Virus record (IMG/VR): IMGVR_UViG_3300007790_001770
Location: 1 to 6,561 of that record
Origin: a virus
DNA: 6,561 bases
Reading direction: 5' to 3' (one strand)
A model generated the notes under the pieces. It was not told where the DNA came from. It ran no database searches and saw only the letters and a program-made list of their open reading frames with translations. Shown here one piece after another: positions 1-6,561 of this stretch; position 1 is the first letter of the stretch, and the number at the start of each line of letters is the position of its first letter. A program made the translations under genes and the position numbers.

Positions 1-91
1 CAACTGGTCGACTGGCTCGCCCGGCAATTGCGAGCAGTTCATTCGTTATCTGCAAGGCTTCAAGTCGGGACGGCAGGAGCCGCGTTCGTAC
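1..91 (+). repeat. Terminal direct repeat, copy A (identical to 6471..6561)
   Basis: Base-by-base comparison shows that caactggtcgactggctcgcccggcaattgcgagcagttcattcgttatctgcaaggcttcaagtcgggacggcaggagccgcgttcgtac is present at both ends. Confidence 0.97.
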
Positions 92-619
92 AAGACGACC
101 GGCGTCGCTTGGGGCGAGGGGTCGAAATACTGGTACGCTAAGGTGTACGACAAGGCAGGCGAGTATTTTCGCCAGTGCGGCAAGCAGGCCAAGGGCTTCA
201 ATGCCGACCTGTTTGCATACATGACGACGAACGGCATAGCGCGCCACGAAATCAGCCTGAAAAGCCGTTACCTGAAACAGAACAACCTGTGGCGCTTCAC
301 TCATTGGGGTATGGGCATGCAAACCGAAGATCGCGTATATGCGCTGTTCAACGATGTGATCGGGGGCGAGACCCACGTAGATTCGTTCCTTGAGATTCCA
401 GGGCGAGCCGGAGAGCTGGCGGTCGCGTGGCGCGATGGTGCCGACCTGAAAAAGCGGCTCGCGCAAAACACGTACTACCGCTACCGGCGCGAGCTACTCA
501 AGTATGGTATCGATATTGCGGTGCCATCGAACGTGAAGCGGTTGCGCCAGCGGGTCGAGGTTATCGCGCTGTCTCCGGCCCCGGTGCCTGACTGGTACGT
601 CCTTCCAAAAGTCGCCTGA
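1..619 (+). CDS. Rolling-circle replication initiation protein (gpII-like), C-terminal part (codon phase starts at position 2; 1..91 duplicates 6471..6561)
   Basis: The frame is open from the window start to TGA at 617..619. It contains KYWYAKVYDKAGE (YDK..E at 146..163), which resembles the catalytic-Tyr motif of Rep_trans/Phage_CRI-type initiators. The M at 143 in the track is an internal GTG (Val) codon. The joined ORF 6058..6470 + 1..619 is 1032 nt (343 aa). Confidence 0.85.
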   Translation, partial: NWSTGSPGNCEQFIRYLQGFKSGRQEPRSYKTTGVAWGEGSKYWYAKVYDKAGEYFRQCGKQAKGFNADLFAYMTTNGIARHEISLKSRYLKQNNLWRFTHWGMGMQTEDRVYALFNDVIGGETHVDSFLEIPGRAGELAVAWRDGADLKKRLAQNTYYRYRRELLKYGIDIAVPSNVKRLRQRVEVIALSPAPVPDWYVLPKVA

Positions 620-758
620 CTTCCTCCGGCCTGCTCAGGCCCACTCTCAAGACGGCCTCGACGTATACGCCGAGGTGCGTCTCTTCCTTTACCGCTTGCA
701 GCTTTAGTTGAGCGTGCAAAGCCGGGTCGATGTTTAGAGTTTTAGTTGTTGGGGCCAT
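561..758 (-). CDS. Ribbon-helix-helix (Arc/CopG/ParG-like) transcriptional regulator, candidate phage repressor
   Basis: The 65-aa product TKTLNIDPALHAQLKLQAVKEETHLGVYVEAVLRVGL fits the beta-strand / helix / turn / helix RHH pattern. The fold-forming core is encoded in the rep-to-gpV-like gene gap (620..758). It is the only minus-strand gene. There is no obvious SD upstream of the ATG. Confidence 0.7.
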   Translation of the reverse strand: MAPTTKTLNIDPALHAQLKLQAVKEETHLGVYVEAVLRVGLSRPEEVRRLLEGRTSQAPGPETAR

Positions 759-768
759 GTAACAAGTG

Positions 769-783
769 ACGAAAGTATTTCGT
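769..783. promoter_or_regulatory. Palindrome ACGAAA-GTA-TTTCGT, candidate operator
   Basis: Perfect 6-bp arms (769..774 and 778..783) sit 11 nt from the RHH start codon and abut the candidate -35 box. Confidence 0.4.
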
Positions 784-812
784 TGACTTGTATCATTATT
801 GCCGCTTACTAT
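783..812 (+). promoter_or_regulatory. Candidate sigma70-type promoter for the structural operon (TTGACT-N18-TACTAT)
   Basis: TTGACT is at 783..788 and TACTAT at 807..812, in the most AT-rich stretch of the window, about 75 nt upstream of the gpV-like start. On the opposite strand, AATAAT (800..795) is a possible divergent -10 for the RHH gene. Confidence 0.35.
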
Positions 813-865
813 TGCTCCCGCTGTATTACTTTTTCCCTAAATCACTATTTCGCGTTTTTACTACA
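806..865 (+). repeat. Four direct copies of a T[TC]ACT-containing 8-mer (TTACTATT, TTACTTTT, TCACTATT, TTACTACA)
   Basis: Copies start at 806, 826, 842 and 858 (spacing 20/16/16 nt) inside the promoter/5' leader of the gpV-like gene. Confidence 0.35.
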
Positions 866-886
866 GTTCAATATCTCGGGGGTCAC

Positions 887-1186
887 ATGAAGTTCCAAGT
901 TGTATCACTCAAGCCGATGGAAGGTGTCGGCAAAGAAAGCAAGCGTCCTTACAAGATGCTGATTTGTTCGGGCATCTACACCAACGCCGATGGCACCGTC
1001 GAGCTGGGCGAAGTGGTTTTCATGGAGCGTGCTGGCCATCCGATCCCAACGCACTTGAAACCCGGACAGAGCTATGTTCCGGTTGTGTCCGCCTCGTCGC
1101 GTCAAGGTCGTCTCCAGTTCGAAATTGTCGAGCTGAAGGAAATGACCGTGGTGGGCGCAAAACAACCAGCTGCCGTAGCGGCCTGA
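887..1186 (+). CDS. ssDNA-binding protein (gpV-like)
   Basis: ATG at 887 is preceded by GGGGG (878..882). The 99-aa product shows spaced similarity to Ff gpV: KRPYKMLIC versus GKPYSLNEQLC, and LKPGQSYVPVVSASSRQGRLQFEIVELK versus APGLYTVHLSSFKVGQFGSLMIDRLRLV. It lies immediately after rep and before the coat genes. Confidence 0.75.
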   Translation: MKFQVVSLKPMEGVGKESKRPYKMLICSGIYTNADGTVELGEVVFMERAGHPIPTHLKPGQSYVPVVSASSRQGRLQFEIVELKEMTVVGAKQPAAVAA

Positions 1187-1189
1187 TTT

Positions 1190-1435
1190 ATGGCTGTCTG
1201 CGCTCGGGCGGTTCAGCAGGCCGACAGCACTTTGGTGCTTGCGCTCGACCCGACAGCCGCTGATTTGTCGGCGTGTCCCTACGTCGTGCAAAGTGGTGCG
1301 GAGCTTGGCGACACCTTGTTGACCATGTCCGCGCAGGATGGCGCGCTTGCTTCCGGAATGATCGTTTCGGTGTGGCTGGCCGCCTATTTCACCCGTGTCG
1401 TTATCGACATTTTTAAAGTTAGGAGTCCTGAATGA
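1190..1435 (+). CDS. Small membrane protein, positional analogue of minor coat proteins gpVII/gpIX
   Basis: The 81-aa ORF starts 3 nt after the gpV-like stop, and its stop overlaps the coat-protein start (ATGA at 1432..1435). It has a C-terminal hydrophobic segment GMIVSVWLAAYFTRVVIDIF. An internal ATG at 1325 would give a 36-aa product of gpVII/gpIX size. There is no clear SD. Confidence 0.55.
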   Translation: MAVCARAVQQADSTLVLALDPTAADLSACPYVVQSGAELGDTLLTMSAQDGALASGMIVSVWLAAYFTRVVIDIFKVRSPE

Positions 1436-1632
1436 AACGCTTCGCAAAAAAAATCGCTGCTGGTGTTGCCCTGGCCGGTGTTGTCGCAACGAACGCCATG
1501 GCCGCGCTGCCGCCTGAAGTCGAAACCGCTGCCACTGCGGCCAAGACCGATATCGCCGAGGCTGGCGGCATCATCATCGGCGTGGTCATCGCCATTGCTG
1601 CTGTCGGCTGGGTTCGTCGCGTGATTCGCTAA
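1432..1632 (+). CDS. Major coat protein (gpVIII-like) precursor
   Basis: AGGAG (1421..1425) lies 6 nt upstream of the ATG. The 66-aa product has a signal peptide MKRFAKKIAAGVALAGVVATNAMA with an A-x-A cleavage site. The 42-aa mature part has an acidic N-terminus (E,E,D,E), a hydrophobic core GGIIIGVVIAIAAVGW and a basic C-terminus RRVIR. Confidence 0.92.
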   Translation: MKRFAKKIAAGVALAGVVATNAMAALPPEVETAATAAKTDIAEAGGIIIGVVIAIAAVGWVRRVIR

Positions 1633-1655
1633 TCGCAGCGTCACGTAACGAAAAA

Positions 1656-1677
1656 GGGGCCGTGTGCCCCTTTTTTT
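1656..1677 (+). terminator. Rho-independent terminator after the major coat gene
   Basis: Stem GGGGC (1656..1660) pairs with GCCCC (1666..1670) around the loop CGTGT. It is followed by T7 (1671..1677) and preceded by A5. Confidence 0.85.
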
Positions 1678-1703
1678 CCGCTTATTTTTTCGGGGGGTGT
1701 CTC

Positions 1704-1772
1704 ATGGCTGGTGCTGGTTTGTTGGTGATTCTCGCTACGTGCGGGGCGTTCTGGATTTTGCTTCGTGAGTAA
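1704..1772 (+). CDS. 22-aa hydrophobic micro-ORF (MAGAGLLVILATCGAFWILLRE), candidate minor coat protein or coupling leader for the gpIII-like gene
   Basis: A GGGGGG SD (1692..1697) lies 6 nt upstream of the ATG at 1704. The TAA stop at 1770..1772 overlaps the GTG start (1765) of the next gene by 8 nt. The ORF is too short for the ORF track. Confidence 0.45.
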   Translation: MAGAGLLVILATCGAFWILLRE

Positions 1773-3225
1773 GTGGCTCGGTGCCCTGTTGCTGCTGCTG
1801 GCCGGGGGCCCAGCGTTTGCGTATGCGCCTGATTATCCGGCTGTGTTCAAGGAAGCGATGTTCAACAACAGCGGTGGCAAATACACGTATTGGCCCGATC
1901 CGCAGGAGGCGTGTATCTGGTCTACTGGTAGCAATCCAATCTCGAGTTCATCAAGCGTTGCAAGTGCGGTTTTCACGCTTGAGGGCGAGCGTAATTTGAG
2001 CGCTTCCTACGTGTGTACGTGGACGTACAAAACGGGTGGGACGAATGTCGTCAGCAGATCCATTCGGTTTCATTGTCCCTATGGCGGGACGCTGAATGGC
2101 AGCCTGTGCGTCAAGGTGCCGGACGGTCAGGGCGAGCCGAAGCTATGCGATGACAAAAACCCGTTTATCCGCCGTTGGAACTATCCAGGCGCAGGCCCGT
2201 ATCCAGCGCCCAGCCATTACAACGGTTGCGTGGTGGTTCCGCTAGAAATGATGGTGTGTCGCAAGGAGGGGACGGCCTCCTATTGCATGTGGATGGTGAA
2301 GCGAACTGGCGAGGTCTATACCGGAGCGCCCGACACGCCGGGTACTGGCGCCAGCGACACGCCGGATAACCCTGACGCTCCGCCGACCAAGTCGCCGCCG
2401 ATCGTCAATCCACCGGCGCCTGATGCGCCCCCCGGTTCGGCGCCGTGCCCGACCGGCACAGTGCATGCGGGTACGTCTGCCGATGGTGTGCCGATCTGCA
2501 TGGGGACCGGCAGTTCGCCGCAAAACCCGCCAGCGCCGCCGCCAAGGATCGAGTCGAGCAAGTCCGAGGACTTGCCGGATGGTTCGACCAAAAAGACGGA
2601 TACGGTAACGCAGACAAATTCGGATGGCTCGACCACGACCACGACAACGGTCACGATCACCCGGCCCGATGGAACCAAGGAAACTAGCGGTGGAACCGTT
2701 ACTTCGAAAACGCCGTCCGGCATGGCCGGGAGGACCGACACACCTGAGAACGATAAATACGACCTGTGCAAGACGAACCCGAATCTTTCGATTTGCCGCG
2801 AGAGTTCGGTTAGTGGTACGTGTGGGGAGGTTGTGTGTATGGGTGATGCCATCCAGTGCGCCACGTTGCGCGCCGCGGCTGCGATGGAATGCCGGCAGAA
2901 GCAGGACCGGGAGGAGCTGCAGGTGCGGCCCGAGGTGGCGTTGGGCGACCAGATTTTGGCCGGGGCCGATCCGATGAAAGGACAGATTGACGAGGCGTTG
3001 AACGGTGGGCCGGTTGCCGATTTCAGCGCACCAGGGCTTGACCAGAGCGGCTTTCTCGGTGCCGGGTCGTGCCTCGCTTCGAAGTCGTTTTCCGCGTTCG
3101 GGCGCACGGTCCAGCTTGATACGGCAGTCCTGTGCGCTGACATCGAACCCTTGAAATACGTGATCTTGGCCGTGTCGTTCCTTGCGGCTTACATGATCAT
3201 TTCCAAAGCTGTGTTGGAGGCATAA
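1765..3225 (+). CDS. Minor coat / host-adsorption protein (gpIII-like)
   Basis: The ORF has a GTG start and a signal peptide MSKWLGALLLLLAGGPAFA. I count 18 cysteines. Pro-rich and Thr/Ser-rich linkers lie at about 2323..2445 and 2500..2760. A C-terminal membrane anchor LKYVILAVSFLAAYMIISKAV is present. It sits between the major coat gene and the gpVI-like gene. Confidence 0.85.
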   Translation: MSKWLGALLLLLAGGPAFAYAPDYPAVFKEAMFNNSGGKYTYWPDPQEACIWSTGSNPISSSSSVASAVFTLEGERNLSASYVCTWTYKTGGTNVVSRSIRFHCPYGGTLNGSLCVKVPDGQGEPKLCDDKNPFIRRWNYPGAGPYPAPSHYNGCVVVPLEMMVCRKEGTASYCMWMVKRTGEVYTGAPDTPGTGASDTPDNPDAPPTKSPPIVNPPAPDAPPGSAPCPTGTVHAGTSADGVPICMGTGSSPQNPPAPPPRIESSKSEDLPDGSTKKTDTVTQTNSDGSTTTTTTVTITRPDGTKETSGGTVTSKTPSGMAGRTDTPENDKYDLCKTNPNLSICRESSVSGTCGEVVCMGDAIQCATLRAAAAMECRQKQDREELQVRPEVALGDQILAGADPMKGQIDEALNGGPVADFSAPGLDQSGFLGAGSCLASKSFSAFGRTVQLDTAVLCADIEPLKYVILAVSFLAAYMIISKAVLEA

Positions 3226-3522
3226 ATGGGTTTGTTCCTTTCGGGCTTGATTGGCGCGCTGGCGGCGTCCATGGGCACGTTGGCCGGGCGCGTGATGATT
3301 GCGCTTGGCTTCGGTGTCGCTACCTATTCGGGCATCACGGCGGGCGTCGAATCGCTCAAGCAGACCGCGATTTCGCAGCTTAGCGGCTTGCCTGCCGACA
3401 CCGTGTCCATGCTCGGTTTTCTGTGGGTTGACAAGGGGCTGACGGTGATTTTCTCGGCGTTCGCCACGGCGTTGACGATGCGGACGGTTGGCGGGTCGAT
3501 CAAAAAGATGGTGTTGAAGTGA
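3226..3522 (+). CDS. Small integral membrane minor coat protein (gpVI-like)
   Basis: GGAGG (3216..3220) lies upstream, and the ATG directly follows the gpIII-like TAA stop. The 98-aa product has several hydrophobic segments (LFLSGLIGALAASMGTLAG, VMIALGFGVATYSGI, LTVIFSAFATALTM). It lies immediately before the Zot-like gene. Confidence 0.75.
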   Translation: MGLFLSGLIGALAASMGTLAGRVMIALGFGVATYSGITAGVESLKQTAISQLSGLPADTVSMLGFLWVDKGLTVIFSAFATALTMRTVGGSIKKMVLK

Positions 3523-4721
3523 TTACGCTGTTCACTGGCCTGCCGGGGAACGGCAAAACGCTCTTTGCGCTTACGTACATCAAGGAGAAAGCGGAGCGTG
3601 AGAACAGGCAGGTGTTCTATCACGGCGTGAACGAATGTACGCTTCCCTGGACACCGTTCAAGGCCGAGGAGTGGATGGACCTGCCTTACGGCTCGATGGT
3701 CCTGATCGATGAATGCCAGTTCGTCTTTCCGCGCAAGCCGAACGGTTCGGTGCTGCCTGCGTTCTACGAGAAGCTTGCAACGCATCGGCATTACGGCTTC
3801 GATATTTTCTTGATCACTCAGCATCCGACGCTGATCGATAACTTCGTGCGGAAGCTGACCGGGCAGCACTTTCATTCGGTACGCAAGTTCGGTCTGAACC
3901 GGGCGACGATCTACGAATGGTCACAGGTGGCCCCAGCGCCGGAAACGGCTGCTGCGCAAAAAACGGCGGTTCCGCTGAAGTGGGCTTTCAACAAGGAGGC
4001 GTACAGCTGGTATAAGTCGGCGGAGGTGCACACGGTCAAGCGCGCGATTCCGGCGAAGTTGTACGTTGCAGTCGCTTTTGTGGTGCTGGTGCTCGCTGCG
4101 CTGTACTGGTTCGTTGACCGTTTCAATGAACGACGCGCGGCGGAGGAGGCCGGTCAATCCACTGTCGCCCAGGTTGCGCCGGTCGCATTGCCGGTTGCTG
4201 CGCCAGCTGGTGGTGCGTCTGGTCCTGTGCCGTTCGACCCGGTCGCTGACGCGAAACACTATGTCGCGATGCAGACGCCGCGCATCGAAGGCTTGCCGCA
4301 CACAGCGCCGAAGTACGACGCGATCACGGTGCCGGTGCGCGCTCCGGTGCCTGCCGCCTGTATCCAGATGGGCGACGTTCGACAGCCTGACGCGAATATT
4401 CGCTGCAAGTGCTTCTCGCAGCAAGGGACGCCGATGGCTGTCGAATTCAACATGTGTCTGGAGATTGCGCGCAATGGCTATTTCCGCGATTTCGACGCGG
4501 ACCGTGACAGTCGGCAGTCGCAGCGTGCGGAAAACGGCGTAGCGGTGCTCCAGAACCGGCAGGAGGCCGGACCTAGCCCTACCCGCGATGGACCCACGGT
4601 GCTGGCGTTTAACCACGTTCCTGACGCCCCCAGGGCGATTGCTGCGCCTTCGGTGATTGATGACGGCCCGCCGAATCCGAATGCTCGTGCACGACATGCG
4701 CAGGTCCCCTCGGCGCAGTAG
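3519..4721 (+). CDS. zot: Zot-family assembly ATPase (gpI-like)
   Basis: The GTG start overlaps the upstream stop (GTGA at 3519..3522). The N-terminus MITLFTGLPGNGKT is a Walker A motif and MVLIDECQ is a Walker B motif. YKSAEVHT is followed by a transmembrane helix LYVAVAFVVLVLAALYWFV. A Cys-containing periplasmic C-terminal domain follows. Confidence 0.93.
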   Translation: MITLFTGLPGNGKTLFALTYIKEKAERENRQVFYHGVNECTLPWTPFKAEEWMDLPYGSMVLIDECQFVFPRKPNGSVLPAFYEKLATHRHYGFDIFLITQHPTLIDNFVRKLTGQHFHSVRKFGLNRATIYEWSQVAPAPETAAAQKTAVPLKWAFNKEAYSWYKSAEVHTVKRAIPAKLYVAVAFVVLVLAALYWFVDRFNERRAAEEAGQSTVAQVAPVALPVAAPAGGASGPVPFDPVADAKHYVAMQTPRIEGLPHTAPKYDAITVPVRAPVPAACIQMGDVRQPDANIRCKCFSQQGTPMAVEFNMCLEIARNGYFRDFDADRDSRQSQRAENGVAVLQNRQEAGPSPTRDGPTVLAFNHVPDAPRAIAAPSVIDDGPPNPNARARHAQVPSAQ

Positions 4722-4727
4722 CGGAAG

Positions 4728-4763
4728 CCGACCGCAGACCGCGACCGACCCGGGCGCGGTCGG
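4728..4763 (+). other. GC-rich stem-loop with alternative pairings just after the gpI-like stop
   Basis: CCGACCGC (4728..4735) pairs with GCGGTCGG (4756..4763). An alternative stem is GACCGCG (4738..4744) with CGCGGTC (4755..4761). GACCG occurs three times (4730, 4738, 4743). The T-run at 4779..4784 is 15 nt away, so this is not a canonical terminator. Confidence 0.4.
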
Positions 4764-4785
4764 AGGGCGGCTAGTTCCTTTTTTA

Positions 4786-4874
4786 TTTATCGTCACCGTT
4801 ACGCAAAAGCCGCACTGAGCGGGATTTTCGTTGCCGTTACAAAAAATCATTTGGATTTATCGTTACGGTGACGG
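4786..4874 (+). repeat. Iteron-like direct repeats plus a 13-bp imperfect inverted repeat in the intergenic region upstream of the accessory cassette
   Basis: The direct repeats are TTTATCGTCACCGTTAC (4786..4802), TTTTCGTTGCCGTTAC (4825..4840) and TTTATCGTTAC (4856..4866). CGTCACCGTTACG (4791..4803) is the reverse complement of CGTTACGGTGACG (4861..4873) at 12 of 13 positions. An inner hairpin CCGC-actga-GCGG (4810..4822) is flanked by A4/T4. Confidence 0.5.
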
Positions 4875-4903
4875 AAAATACGTTTCATTGCTTGGGAGGA
4901 ATT

Positions 4904-5254
4904 ATGGCGCGTAAGGATAATGTGACGGTTGAATTGCCGGGATTGCCCCCGCGACGTGGGCGACCGGCTACGGGAAAGGCGAAGAGTGGCGCGGAACGGC
5001 AGCGGGCATACCGGAAGAAGTTGCGCGAGGCTCAGGTTAGCGGTGTCCAGATATCGCCAGGGTCGGGCTGGCGGTCTGAGAAGGAATACGAGGAATTGAG
5101 ACGAATGATGAATTTCAGTCGCAATTCCATGTTCAAGATGGAGCAGAACATTCTTGCGTATCAGAAGGAAATCGCGTTGCTGGTCGAGGAACGCAGAAAA
5201 CTGTTCGCCGAGGTCGAGCGGTTGCAGGCGGAATTGGCGCGGAGGGGCAAGTGA
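4904..5254 (+). CDS. Hypothetical basic-region plus coiled-coil protein (bZIP-like architecture), candidate DNA-binding regulator
   Basis: ATG at 4904 has a GGGAGGA SD at 4894..4900. The GTG at 4868 in the track has no SD. The 116-aa product has an N-terminal basic stretch PPRRGRPATGKAKSGAERQRAYRKKLRE. Its C-terminus EQNILAYQKEIALLVEERRKLFAEVERLQAELARR has heptad-like spacing of hydrophobic residues. Confidence 0.7.
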   Translation: MARKDNVTVELPGLPPRRGRPATGKAKSGAERQRAYRKKLREAQVSGVQISPGSGWRSEKEYEELRRMMNFSRNSMFKMEQNILAYQKEIALLVEERRKLFAEVERLQAELARRGK

Positions 5255-5349
5255 TGGAGCGGCTACTGTACTGGATCGCCTTGCTGGTGATGGCCCTGTT
5301 TGTGTTTGTGTTGGTGTTTGTGTTGTTCGGGTTGTATCGACTTAACTAA
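5254..5349 (+). CDS. 31-aa single-pass transmembrane micro-protein (MERLLYWIALLVMALFVFVLVFVLFGLYRLN)
   Basis: A GGAGGGG SD (5241..5247) lies 6 nt upstream. The ATG overlaps the upstream TGA (TGATG at 5252..5256). TAA is at 5347..5349. The ORF is not in the track, which instead lists an alternative-frame ORF 5154..5345 across the same G/T-rich tract. Confidence 0.5.
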   Translation: MERLLYWIALLVMALFVFVLVFVLFGLYRLN

Positions 5350-5364
5350 CGAAAGGATTCGTCA

Positions 5365-5811
5365 ATGAGTACACCGTATCAAGAGGCTATGCACTGGATC
5401 GAGGTCGAGGGCTATTCCACCGGCAGCGCGTTTAGCCTGGCGAAGCTGATCCTCTCCCTGTACAACGACCAGTGCGGATTTGCGATCAGCGAATGTATCG
5501 GCAACCTCGATCCCCGACTTACTCGTTTGGCCCTGGCGATGGTGGAGCATTACGCGCGTCACGGCGAGCACCCCGAGCTGCTTCGTGCGGGGAAGAAGAT
5601 CGCCGACGACCTGTATCCGCGCTTGTGGGAACAGGGCGTGGCAATGGCTGAAGTGCGCGCCGAGTTGCGCCGGCGATGGGAGCGCGAAGCCGAGGCTGAA
5701 AATCAGTGTGAGGATCCGGATATGTGCCTTTCCTGTAATGGCACCGGTCAGTTTGACGGCGAGGATTGTCTCCGTTGCCAAGGAACTGGTTTCTTGCCGG
5801 AAGGCGAATAG
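5365..5811 (+). CDS. Hypothetical protein with a C-terminal DnaJ-type zinc-knuckle pair (2 x CxxCxGxG)
   Basis: An AAAGGA SD (5352..5357) lies 7 nt upstream. The 148-aa product has GC-rich third codon positions. The C-terminus is CLSCNGTGQFDGEDCLRCQGTG. The N-terminal roughly 110 aa is helical-looking with no motif I can name confidently. Confidence 0.75.
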   Translation: MSTPYQEAMHWIEVEGYSTGSAFSLAKLILSLYNDQCGFAISECIGNLDPRLTRLALAMVEHYARHGEHPELLRAGKKIADDLYPRLWEQGVAMAEVRAELRRRWEREAEAENQCEDPDMCLSCNGTGQFDGEDCLRCQGTGFLPEGE

Positions 5812-5869
5812 GCCTTGTTGCAAAGCTCGCCCAACTAGCCGTTGAGTTCTCGAGGTGGGCGCGCCAGCG

Positions 5870-5950
5870 GGCCGGTTTTTCGCTTTAGCGGCCTGTCGCC
5901 CGTTGAGGGCGACACCCACCGTATCCCCGGCGGTCCTCCAGACCGTCCGG
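5870..5950 (+). other. Cluster of three consecutive stem-loops in the rep-upstream intergenic region (candidate ssDNA origin / packaging-signal structures)
   Basis: Stem-loop 1 is GGCCG/CGGCC (5870..5893, 14-nt loop). Stem-loop 2 is a perfect 7-bp stem GTCGCCC-gttga-GGGCGAC (5895..5913). Stem-loop 3 is CCGGCGG/CCG(T)CCGG, a 7-bp stem with one bulge (5927..5950). Confidence 0.5.
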
Positions 5951-5988
5951 CCACGTACAGTTGGGCTGAGGTAAAATGTTGCTCGCCC

Positions 5989-6028
5989 GGAAAGTTTCCA
6001 ACTTTACGTGCCTGTAACACGTAAAGTT
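5989..6028 (+). promoter_or_regulatory. Palindrome GGAAAgTTTCC followed by a perfect 11-bp inverted repeat AACTTTACGTG-N7-CACGTAAAGTT, 30 nt upstream of the rep start
   Basis: The palindrome is at 5989..5999. The IR arms are at 6000..6010 and 6018..6028 with loop cctgtaa. This is the longest perfect inverted repeat I found in the window. Confidence 0.55.
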
Positions 6029-6057
6029 ATTACCAAAATTGAGGAAGGAACCCGCGC

Positions 6058-6561
6058 ATGGGGGGGGTTTTCTGCGATTGGTTGTCGATCTATCAGGTGC
6101 ATCTGGGCGGTGTCCCGGTCGTCAATTCAGGACATGTGTTTTCGGTTGATCAGGATGGTGTCGTACAGTGGGATGTGCCGCAAAAACTGGTGCACAGAGG
6201 TTCGCATGACACGTCGATACGCATCCGTTCGGATGGCCACCGCGTTTCTCTGGAAGGGAACATCGGTCGGTTTGATCGTTCTGACAACTTGTTCGGTTAC
6301 TCGGTGCTAGAGTGCGTGAGGCTGGCAAATCGTTTGCTGGCACAGTTCGGCCTTCCTCCGTTCTCGGATGCTGCACCTATGCCGCTGGTCAAAAAGGTCG
6401 GGGCCAGTGGCGACGTCGACGGCGGCTTTCAAGCGGTCGGTGCCGTCATCACGCGCATCGACCTCACTTGCAACTGGTCGACTGGCTCGCCCGGCAATTG
6501 CGAGCAGTTCATTCGTTATCTGCAAGGCTTCAAGTCGGGACGGCAGGAGCCGCGTTCGTAC
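6058..6561 (+). CDS. Rolling-circle replication initiation protein (gpII-like), N-terminal part; the ORF runs off the window end and continues at position 92 via the circular junction
   Basis: ATG at 6058 is the first start after an in-frame TGA at 6040..6042. A GAGGAAGG Shine-Dalgarno sits at 6041..6048. 168 codons are open to the window end (MGGVFCDWLSIYQVHLGG...). The reading phase at 6471 matches the phase of the ORF ending at 619. The ORF has no stop inside the window, so it is absent from the ORF track. Confidence 0.85.
   Translation, partial: MGGVFCDWLSIYQVHLGGVPVVNSGHVFSVDQDGVVQWDVPQKLVHRGSHDTSIRIRSDGHRVSLEGNIGRFDRSDNLFGYSVLECVRLANRLLAQFGLPPFSDAAPMPLVKKVGASGDVDGGFQAVGAVITRIDLTCNWSTGSPGNCEQFIRYLQGFKSGRQEPRSY
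6471..6561 (+). repeat. Terminal direct repeat, copy B (identical to 1..91)
   Basis: This is the same 91-mer as 1..91. It is typical of a circular molecule linearised with an assembly overlap. Confidence 0.97.

Follow-up and report, generated by a model that had tools for sequence, protein, structure and literature searches.

The 6,561-nucleotide stretch analyzed here (positions 1 to 6,561 of IMG/VR virus record IMGVR_UViG_3300007790_001770; the window) is the genome of a filamentous phage (inovirus), and a gene at positions 5365 to 5811, the target, encodes a 148-residue protein. We find that this protein is a chimera, in which a head of the DUF7673 / phrog_6694 superfamily is joined, via the long last helix of the head, to a C-terminal Cys4 knuckle. 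Both modules are of known kinds; what is new is their combination and the inovirus setting. The gene and its parts are as follows.

5365 to 5811, plus strand: the target gene, with an ATG start and a TAG stop, 148 amino acids (aa), from the list of open reading frames (ORFs)
5352 to 5357, plus strand: a Shine-Dalgarno-like AAAGGA, 7 nt upstream of the ATG, read from the sequence
5365 to 5700, plus strand: the head, residues 1 to 112, six helices packed into a compact all-helical domain, the final helix being long (residues 85 to 115)
5701 to 5724, plus strand: an acidic lead-in to the knuckle, residues 113 to 120, ending in EDPDM and shared, according to alignments, with P0088 and P0128, which are knuckle proteins encoded by two other inoviruses
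5725 to 5748, plus strand: the first CxxCxGxG motif, CLSCNGTG, residues 121 to 128
5767 to 5790, plus strand: the second CxxCxGxG motif, CLRCQGTG, residues 135 to 142
5725 to 5793, plus strand: the predicted single-zinc Cys4 knuckle, residues 121 to 143, an anti-TRAP-like hairpin, from alignment and model

The target is a genuine, expressed-looking accessory gene of an inovirus. When 1.84 billion representative proteins were searched exhaustively with phmmer, 133 homologues were found at E ≤ 1e-3, and an independent soil-metagenome assembly contains a near-identical genome with the same gene order, in which the copy of the target protein is 99% identical; on these two grounds, we consider the plus-strand frame a real gene. 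The reading of the target as a spurious ORF, in favor of the overlapping 185-aa minus-strand ORF (5362 to 5919), was rejected because all homology lies in the plus-strand frame. Recent acquisition, as judged by composition, was also rejected, since the GC content (0.59) and GC3 (0.69) of the target are similar to those of the remaining phage genome. Among 50,697 deposited phage records, no match was found to the genome (megablast) or to the target protein (tblastn).

An earlier note, made from the letters of the DNA, had drawn attention to two CxxCxGxG motifs lying 14 residues apart at the extreme C terminus, behind a domain of roughly 110 residues. We confirmed both parts of this description. 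The first Cys of one motif is 14 residues from the first Cys of the other, and only 6 residues follow the last Gly. The C..C.G.G pattern has just these two matches across the six frames of the window, and a pair arose in none of 500 dinucleotide-preserving shuffles, in which a single motif occurred on average 0.094 times per sequence. The homologues align to residues 3 to ∼112, and an AlphaFold2 (AF2) model of the target reaches predicted local distance difference test (pLDDT) values of 96 to 98 over the head, to about residue 110.

To which family does the head belong? About 125 of the 133 phmmer matches align to residues 3 to 115 only, and most of them are stand-alone proteins of 100 to 125 aa. 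The query head scores 21.6 bits against Pfam DUF7673 (PF24720) over residues 14 to 79, below the gathering cutoff of 27, and the query did not match phrog_6694 in PHROG at E ≤ 1. We place it in the DUF7673 superfamily despite this sub-cutoff score because several independent lines, from profiles, fold, and language model, agree. Among 90 members of the head family, 15 match PF24720 at E < 1e-3, the best of them at E 1.6e-25. A profile built from 54 head sequences aligned by hhalign to canonical DUF7673 segments (those of P0076, P0084, and P0129) with a probability of 97.7% (E 1.9e-12, 80 columns). Canonical DUF7673 members in turn match phrog_6694, with E values of up to 1.9e-30, and a relative of the target, P0010, matches it at E 4.8e-5. 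In the ESM Atlas, the head superimposes on a DUF7673-bearing cluster with a TM score of 0.93 (by the match) and a root mean square deviation (rmsd) of 1.2 Å over 117 residues; 11% of the members of that cluster carry PF24720. The language-model neighbors of the head are all DUF7673-bearing clusters, with scores of 0.85 to 0.88. We therefore assign the head to the DUF7673 / phrog_6694 superfamily as a divergent member, within a subfamily that has a conserved Cys44. It shares with the superfamily the motif pattern P-x-TG, L-S-x-Y/W-N, L-D, G-E, P-x-L-W, as well as the fold. The target departs from most members in bearing a CxxCxGxG knuckle, and its inovirus setting is a further difference.

Two relatives, P0076 (317 aa) and P0084 (354 aa), carry a query-like head at the N terminus and a canonical DUF7673 / phrog_6694 domain further along the same chain, an arrangement that suggests that the working unit of the domain is a dimer. 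The target is acidic, with an isoelectric point (pI) of 4.65 and a net charge of about -13, and acidity runs through the head family (pI < 6 in 57 of 70 stand-alone members). A solved structure for the head did not emerge: Foldseek against the PDB gave nothing at E ≤ 1e-3, the best VIA-align Z score was 5.2, which lies within the range common for helical models, and a profile search of PDB sequences with the head returned only a designed protein, in which no matched stretch passed alone.

The conserved positions of the head are P4, Y5, T19, K27, L30 (invariant), S31, N34, E43, C44, D49, G67, E68, L72, and P85. Some ten polar positions are conserved over 87 members, including K27 (75/87), S31 (79/87), and E43 (66/87), with C44 (70/84), D49 (76/86), and E68 (67/87) also among them. 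This pattern would fit a head that is a small enzyme or a ligand-binding domain, with the knuckle as a mere stabilizing cap. We give this reading little credence: C44 is not retained in the canonical DUF7673 segments, the fold searches described above found no enzyme match (best VIA-align Z 5.2; Foldseek, none at E ≤ 1e-3), and no cofactor motif was recognized in the ∼110 helical residues.

The tail is predicted to form a single Cys4 knuckle, of the anti-TRAP/DnaJ type, and is expected to bind a single Zn(II). Across 27 homologous tail sequences, none of the eight Cys and Gly positions varies, and a model built from the alignment of these 27 gives the knuckle pLDDT values of 92 to 93, with no helix after it. 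Conservation of the Cys motifs thus depends on which relatives are considered: it holds among tail homologues but not among head relatives, the closest of which have no knuckle and carry an unrelated C-terminal domain of ∼120 residues instead. The best solved match to the tail is anti-TRAP, aligned without gaps over 25 residues (anti-TRAP residues 11 to 35; E 0.011 for 3lcz). In Foldseek comparisons, the modeled knuckle superimposes on the anti-TRAP structures 3ld0, 2bx9, and 3lcz with an rmsd of 0.6 to 0.7 Å over 25 to 26 residues (probability, 0.99 to 1.00; E 0.12 to 0.18), and DnaJ zinc-finger domains appear at ranks 4 and 9 with an rmsd of 4.6 to 4.7 Å.

The likeness to anti-TRAP (RtpA of Bacillus) lies in two adjacent CxxCxGxG motifs with an identical 14-residue spacing. 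The two proteins otherwise differ. Anti-TRAP has 53 residues and a C-terminal helix that builds trimers and dodecamers, whereas the knuckle of the target forms the extreme C terminus of a 148-residue protein with an unrelated head, and a TRAP system is not implied. Profile scores are low for every named family: 14.8 bits for PF15777 (Anti-TRAP; cutoff, 32) and 24.8 bits for NCBIfam RtpA (NF058604; cutoff, 65), the anti-TRAP match covering only profile positions 12 to 34 of 50, 15.7 bits for PF00684, the DnaJ Cys-rich domain (cutoff, 32.7; E 0.019), and 12.6 bits for TIGR02349, DnaJ_bact (cutoff, 377; E 0.068), where residues 118 to 143 align to the Cys-rich region and not to the J-domain.

The earlier note had called the motifs DnaJ type and had proposed a zinc center that contacts substrates, as in DnaJ. 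The first point stands in a broader form, as both the sequence and the predicted shape of the tail are of the DnaJ/anti-TRAP type; the second does not. The target would, on that proposal, be a DnaJ-like holdase or a co-chaperone fragment whose zinc center contacts unfolded substrates or DnaK. The motif is indeed the one found in the Cys-rich domain of DnaJ (PF00684; 1exk), and the weak matches to PF00684 and TIGR02349, together with the two Foldseek ranks, point the same way. DnaJ, however, has four repeats, two interleaved zinc centers, a J-domain, a G/F region, and C-terminal domains, and the target has none of this architecture beyond two repeats, equivalent to one of the two zinc centers. 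No Pfam match to a J-domain was found in the target at E ≤ 10, nor any DnaJ_C match to the C-terminal substrate-binding domains, and the protein ends 6 residues past the second motif. With two DnaJ scores far below their cutoffs and a knuckle that fits anti-TRAP far better than DnaJ (0.6 to 0.7 against 4.6 to 4.7 Å), we regard a DnaJ-like role as highly improbable.

The note had also stated that pairs of this motif form one Zn(II) center in DnaJ. The gapless, 14-spaced match to the DnaJ Cys-rich domain (1exk) falls on two consecutive C-terminal repeats (chain residues 52 to 75), which we take to be repeats 3 and 4, contributing to different zinc centers. Because the matched DnaJ repeats belong to different centers, anti-TRAP is the better precedent. 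The statement therefore survives for a pair of motifs that holds one zinc, with its source moved from DnaJ to anti-TRAP: there, an adjacent motif pair binds one zinc, both assembly and function require this metal, and the protein exerts its effect by binding TRAP (PMC2896485).

Judged from sequence matches, the knuckle is a promiscuous phage module that occurs in many unrelated phage proteins. We scanned IMG/VR viral contigs both with an exact pattern, a more specific form of the motif, and with a relaxed one. Carriers in the exact-pattern scan include an 858-aa DNA polymerase A-like ORF (in contig L027), whose knuckle is ∼50% identical to the query tail, proteins of 584 and 1,486 aa, and ORFs of 46 and 171 aa. 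The relaxed scan found the knuckle in at least 79 viral ORFs of 52 to 850 aa; among the matches listed, 40 of 79 have exactly two motifs, and among the loci listed, at least 80, none matched the Zot or Rep queries (from the window, L018, and L019), a result that speaks neither for nor against a recurring position before rep. Partial DnaJ domains with two CXXCXGXG motifs have been described in the DNA polymerases A of HMO-2011-type phages (PMC9038755). These polymerases resemble the target in having an isolated pair of the same motif within a phage protein; the difference is that the knuckle is an insertion in a replication enzyme there and a C-terminal tail on a small protein here. Given this published case and the 40 listed ORFs, an isolated motif pair is ordinary in phages. 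The same knuckle also occurs in a 536-aa phage protein that is near-identical in three IMG/VR contigs (L023, positions 3630 to 5240 as oriented, L026, and L029), where it sits inside a long Ala/Pro-rich linker in the C-terminal half.

Other members of the head family carry Cys4 ribbons of other kinds. Plain CxxC pairs are found at the C termini of P0029, P0030, P0072, and P0069; P0129, a canonical DUF7673 protein, has a C-terminal CxxCxGxG pair with a 24-residue spacing; and in P0104 the ribbon is at the N terminus. The ribbon-bearing members are scattered on a quick, weakly resolved family tree, where parsimony counts 7 changes, of which at least 2 are imposed by well-supported branches. Since the tree is weakly resolved, the differences in ribbon position and type are the stronger argument for independent fusions.

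Where is the head family found? The earlier note's tentative likening of the domain to accessory proteins from plasmids and integrative and conjugative elements (ICEs) proved apt, as the family occurs on conjugative plasmids and ICE-like elements. By tblastn, it is present on 23 plasmids, 20 of them from Xanthomonas; most are large plasmids of Xanthomonas or Stenotrophomonas. Gene order is kept between pXCV183 and a Stenotrophomonas plasmid, with a ∼980-aa protein, the head gene, a 67- to 70-aa gene, and then KfrA. The genes of the closest head relatives (59% identity) belong to clusters of small genes on a single strand, with a MOBP relaxase and NikA next to them. One canonical DUF7673 gene follows, on the same strand, two tyrosine-recombinase genes and a 541-aa ORF. 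A copy on a Massilia chromosome is flanked by a gene for a UmuC-like polymerase on one side and H-NS-like and SNase genes on the other. Of 401 genomes sampled from the order to which Massilia belongs, only 7 had a head match, and a scan of genome contigs gave 3 head-family loci. This sporadic occurrence in varied mobile-element contexts indicates that the gene is carried by mobile elements.

Some of these loci show further regularities. The four-gene order ending in KfrA is seen on MPF_I plasmids of Stenotrophomonas (L002, 2958 to 7606) and Xanthomonas (L003, 3029 to 7600); its ∼980-aa protein has no match in Pfam or PADLOC. On two unrelated plasmids, from Desulfocapsa (L015, 3754 to 5252) and Trichlorobacter (L016, 3578 to 5357), a gene for an AAA-family ATPase, an ORF of 58 to 76 aa, and a canonical DUF7673-type gene follow one another on the same strand and may constitute a recurrent three-gene unit.

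We tentatively favor, with a confidence slightly short of even, the reading that the target is a zinc-stabilized, protein-binding accessory factor (an adaptor or an inhibitor). On this reading, it is no co-chaperone and is unlikely to regulate by binding DNA. We prefer a protein-binding role because both modules are strongly acidic, because neither bears a DNA-binding or enzymatic signature, and because anti-TRAP, the one structural analogue that has been studied well, employs this knuckle in binding and blocking a protein. The partner of the target would belong to the host or to a co-resident mobile element and would be acted on during phage establishment or maintenance. The head, possibly as a dimer, would supply the main specificity, and the knuckle would add a second contact or an oligomerization surface.

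Several points weigh against this proposal. The protein-binding role is drawn from charge, architecture, and analogy, and no DUF7673 protein has a known partner; zinc binding by the knuckle is likewise a prediction. Every named-family score of the tail falls below its curated cutoff, and the Foldseek E values are weak for a module of only 25 residues. The conserved polar residues of the head (Y5, T19, K27, S31, N34, E43, C44, D49, and E68) could mark an enzyme or ligand site instead of an interface with a protein. PADLOC gave no convincing defense or anti-defense match: there was a weak tail hit to PDC-M01B (E 7e-4) and none for the head or its relatives. Finally, the target gene immediately precedes rep, an arrangement shared with knuckle genes in two other inoviruses, and a role linked to replication fits this position no less naturally than one directed against the host.

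These two inovirus proteins came from the phmmer search. Two of its four best matches confined to the tail, P0088 (in L018) and P0128 (in L019), are encoded directly upstream of a Rep_trans gene, and the ends of their genes overlap its start. The knuckle protein of L018 (locus, 1705 to 3309) has 81 aa and two pairs of motifs, and that of L019 (locus, 1353 to 2928) has 101 aa and one pair. Their knuckles are homologous to that of the target, including an acidic ED-x-DM lead-in (53 to 62% identity over 29 to 37 residues), and they share its position before rep. The two proteins differ from the target in their N-terminal parts, which have no relation to DUF7673; in addition, both phages encode a Rep of the Rep_trans type, and the knuckle gene runs into the start of rep. 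L019 shares gpIII (41% identity), gpVI (38%), and Zot (37%) with the window phage. In L018, the order is a gene for a 66-aa helical protein, a 33-aa hydrophobic ORF, the knuckle gene, and rep; in L019, the knuckle and a homologue of that helical protein form a single chain (pairwise E 2e-7). The neighborhood of the target resembles the L018 order.

4868 to 5254, plus strand: upstream neighbor, a 128-aa protein with a basic N terminus and a coiled coil; no link to the target was found
5251 to 5349, plus strand: upstream neighbor, a 32-aa hydrophobic micro-ORF, from the ORF list
6058 to 6561, plus strand: downstream neighbor, the 5' part of the rolling-circle rep gene, which continues at 1 to 619 across the terminal repeat

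The knuckle protein encoded before rep could thus be a recurring helper of rolling-circle replication or of rep expression in this inovirus group. Its task might be to bring in a host replication protein or keep it in place, with the DUF7673 head as one of several exchangeable N-terminal parts. The placement of P0088 and P0128, the structural and assembly genes that L019 has in common with the window phage, the parallel gene orders, and the fusion of a helix like that of the 66-aa protein to the knuckle in L019 all speak for such a cofactor, as does the insertion of the same knuckle in a phage DNA polymerase A (L027; PMC9038755). However, the pattern has just three examples, with Rep proteins of different families (Phage_CRI in the window, Rep_trans in L018 and L019). 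The 246 nt that separate the target, the last gene ahead of this gap, from rep exclude translational coupling, and the knuckle also occurs in proteins unlinked to replication. The two nearest relatives by Zot, L041 and L042 (55 to 60% identity), have no knuckle ORF, and neither does any of 28 Zot-related viral contigs. We consider a replication-linked cofactor unlikely, while giving it a real share of our belief.

The location upstream of rep would also suit a zinc-finger DNA-binding regulator of the Ogr/Delta or Q type, controlling rep or late transcription. The tail has weak PHROG matches to "anti-termination protein Q-like" families (E 0.08 to 0.14), and Foldseek places the zinc finger of lambda Q at ranks 5 to 8 (probability, 0.33 to 0.51). 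These Q matches are, however, at the level of the motif and not significant. Both modules are strongly acidic (pI 4.65 overall), the tail having a net charge of about -6 over 32 residues; no helix-turn-helix or other DNA-binding family was detected in Pfam or NCBIfam; and most head homologues have no ribbon at all. We therefore hold a DNA-binding regulator to be improbable.

The earlier note had not recognized the target as a standard inovirus gene, and the nearest relatives of the phage agree with that view. By Zot, these are L041 (60% identity) and L042 (55%), both of which are without the target gene and any knuckle ORF; a knuckle ORF was likewise found in 0 of 28 Zot-related viral contigs. 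Because L041, L042, and these contigs do not have it, we consider the target gene accessory, in a region that is swapped between phages. The gene sits in the variable region that extends from the zot-like assembly gene to rep. L041 and L042 share o81, gpIII, gpVI, and Zot with the window (42 to 62% identity), and L041 also shares part of the coat protein. Neither has a match for the window Rep, single-stranded DNA (ssDNA)-binding protein, ribbon-helix-helix (RHH) gene, or accessory genes, which means that the half of the genome devoted to replication and regulation was swapped as one module.

DUF7673 / phrog_6694 is a widespread mobile-element domain, present on plasmids, ICE-like elements, and phages, and now also in a 6.5-kb filamentous phage, a very small genetic background. 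A DUF7673 head has been joined repeatedly to different Cys4 ribbons, which points to cooperation between the domain and a small docking module, and the tandem forms point to a dimeric unit. These three facts make the domain more testable. For annotation, a lone CxxCxGxG pair in a phage protein is best read as a common anti-TRAP-like zinc knuckle and not as evidence of chaperone function. It is conceivable, although we think it quite unlikely, that inoviruses of this group keep a modular protein with a variable head and a constant zinc knuckle before rep, in which the knuckle would dock on a conserved host or phage component of replication or establishment, and the head, in this phage a DUF7673 domain that conjugative plasmids and ICEs also have, would act against a host function that many mobile elements must neutralize. 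If true, such an arrangement would provide the first functional handle on DUF7673 and add a new accessory class to those of the filamentous phages. The findings change no current view unless a function emerges.

The remaining features of the genome are those of an inovirus. The window is a complete genome of 6.47 kb with direct terminal repeats: its first 91 nt are the same as its last 91 nt, and joining the ends gives a 343-aa Rep. Pfam searches with the window proteins identified Rep (Phage_CRI and G2P_X_C), the major coat protein (Phage_Coat_B), a gpVI-like protein (DUF2523), and the Zot-like assembly ATPase; the Zot proteins of Ralstonia phages PE226 and p12J show 37 to 42% identity with the window Zot. 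There is no integrase gene in the window, and a search with an Escherichia coli-type consensus found no dif-like XerCD site in it, including positions 5812 to 6057.

We also considered whether the two upstream neighbors and the target form a conserved three-gene cassette. This idea was rejected, since the neighbors do not co-occur with head homologues: no homologue of the 128-aa or the 32-aa protein was found near head homologues on plasmid or ICE loci. The 128-aa neighbor was rejected, too, as a counterpart of the helical partners in L018 and L019, because the proteins are unrelated. L041 shares neither the remainder of the 128-aa protein nor the 32-aa ORF, the target, or rep; what it does share is the basic segment of the 128-aa protein (residues 27 to 54, RGRP...ERQRAYRKK), encoded at positions 5391 to 5474 of L041 and 4946 to 5029 of the window and 71% identical between the two.

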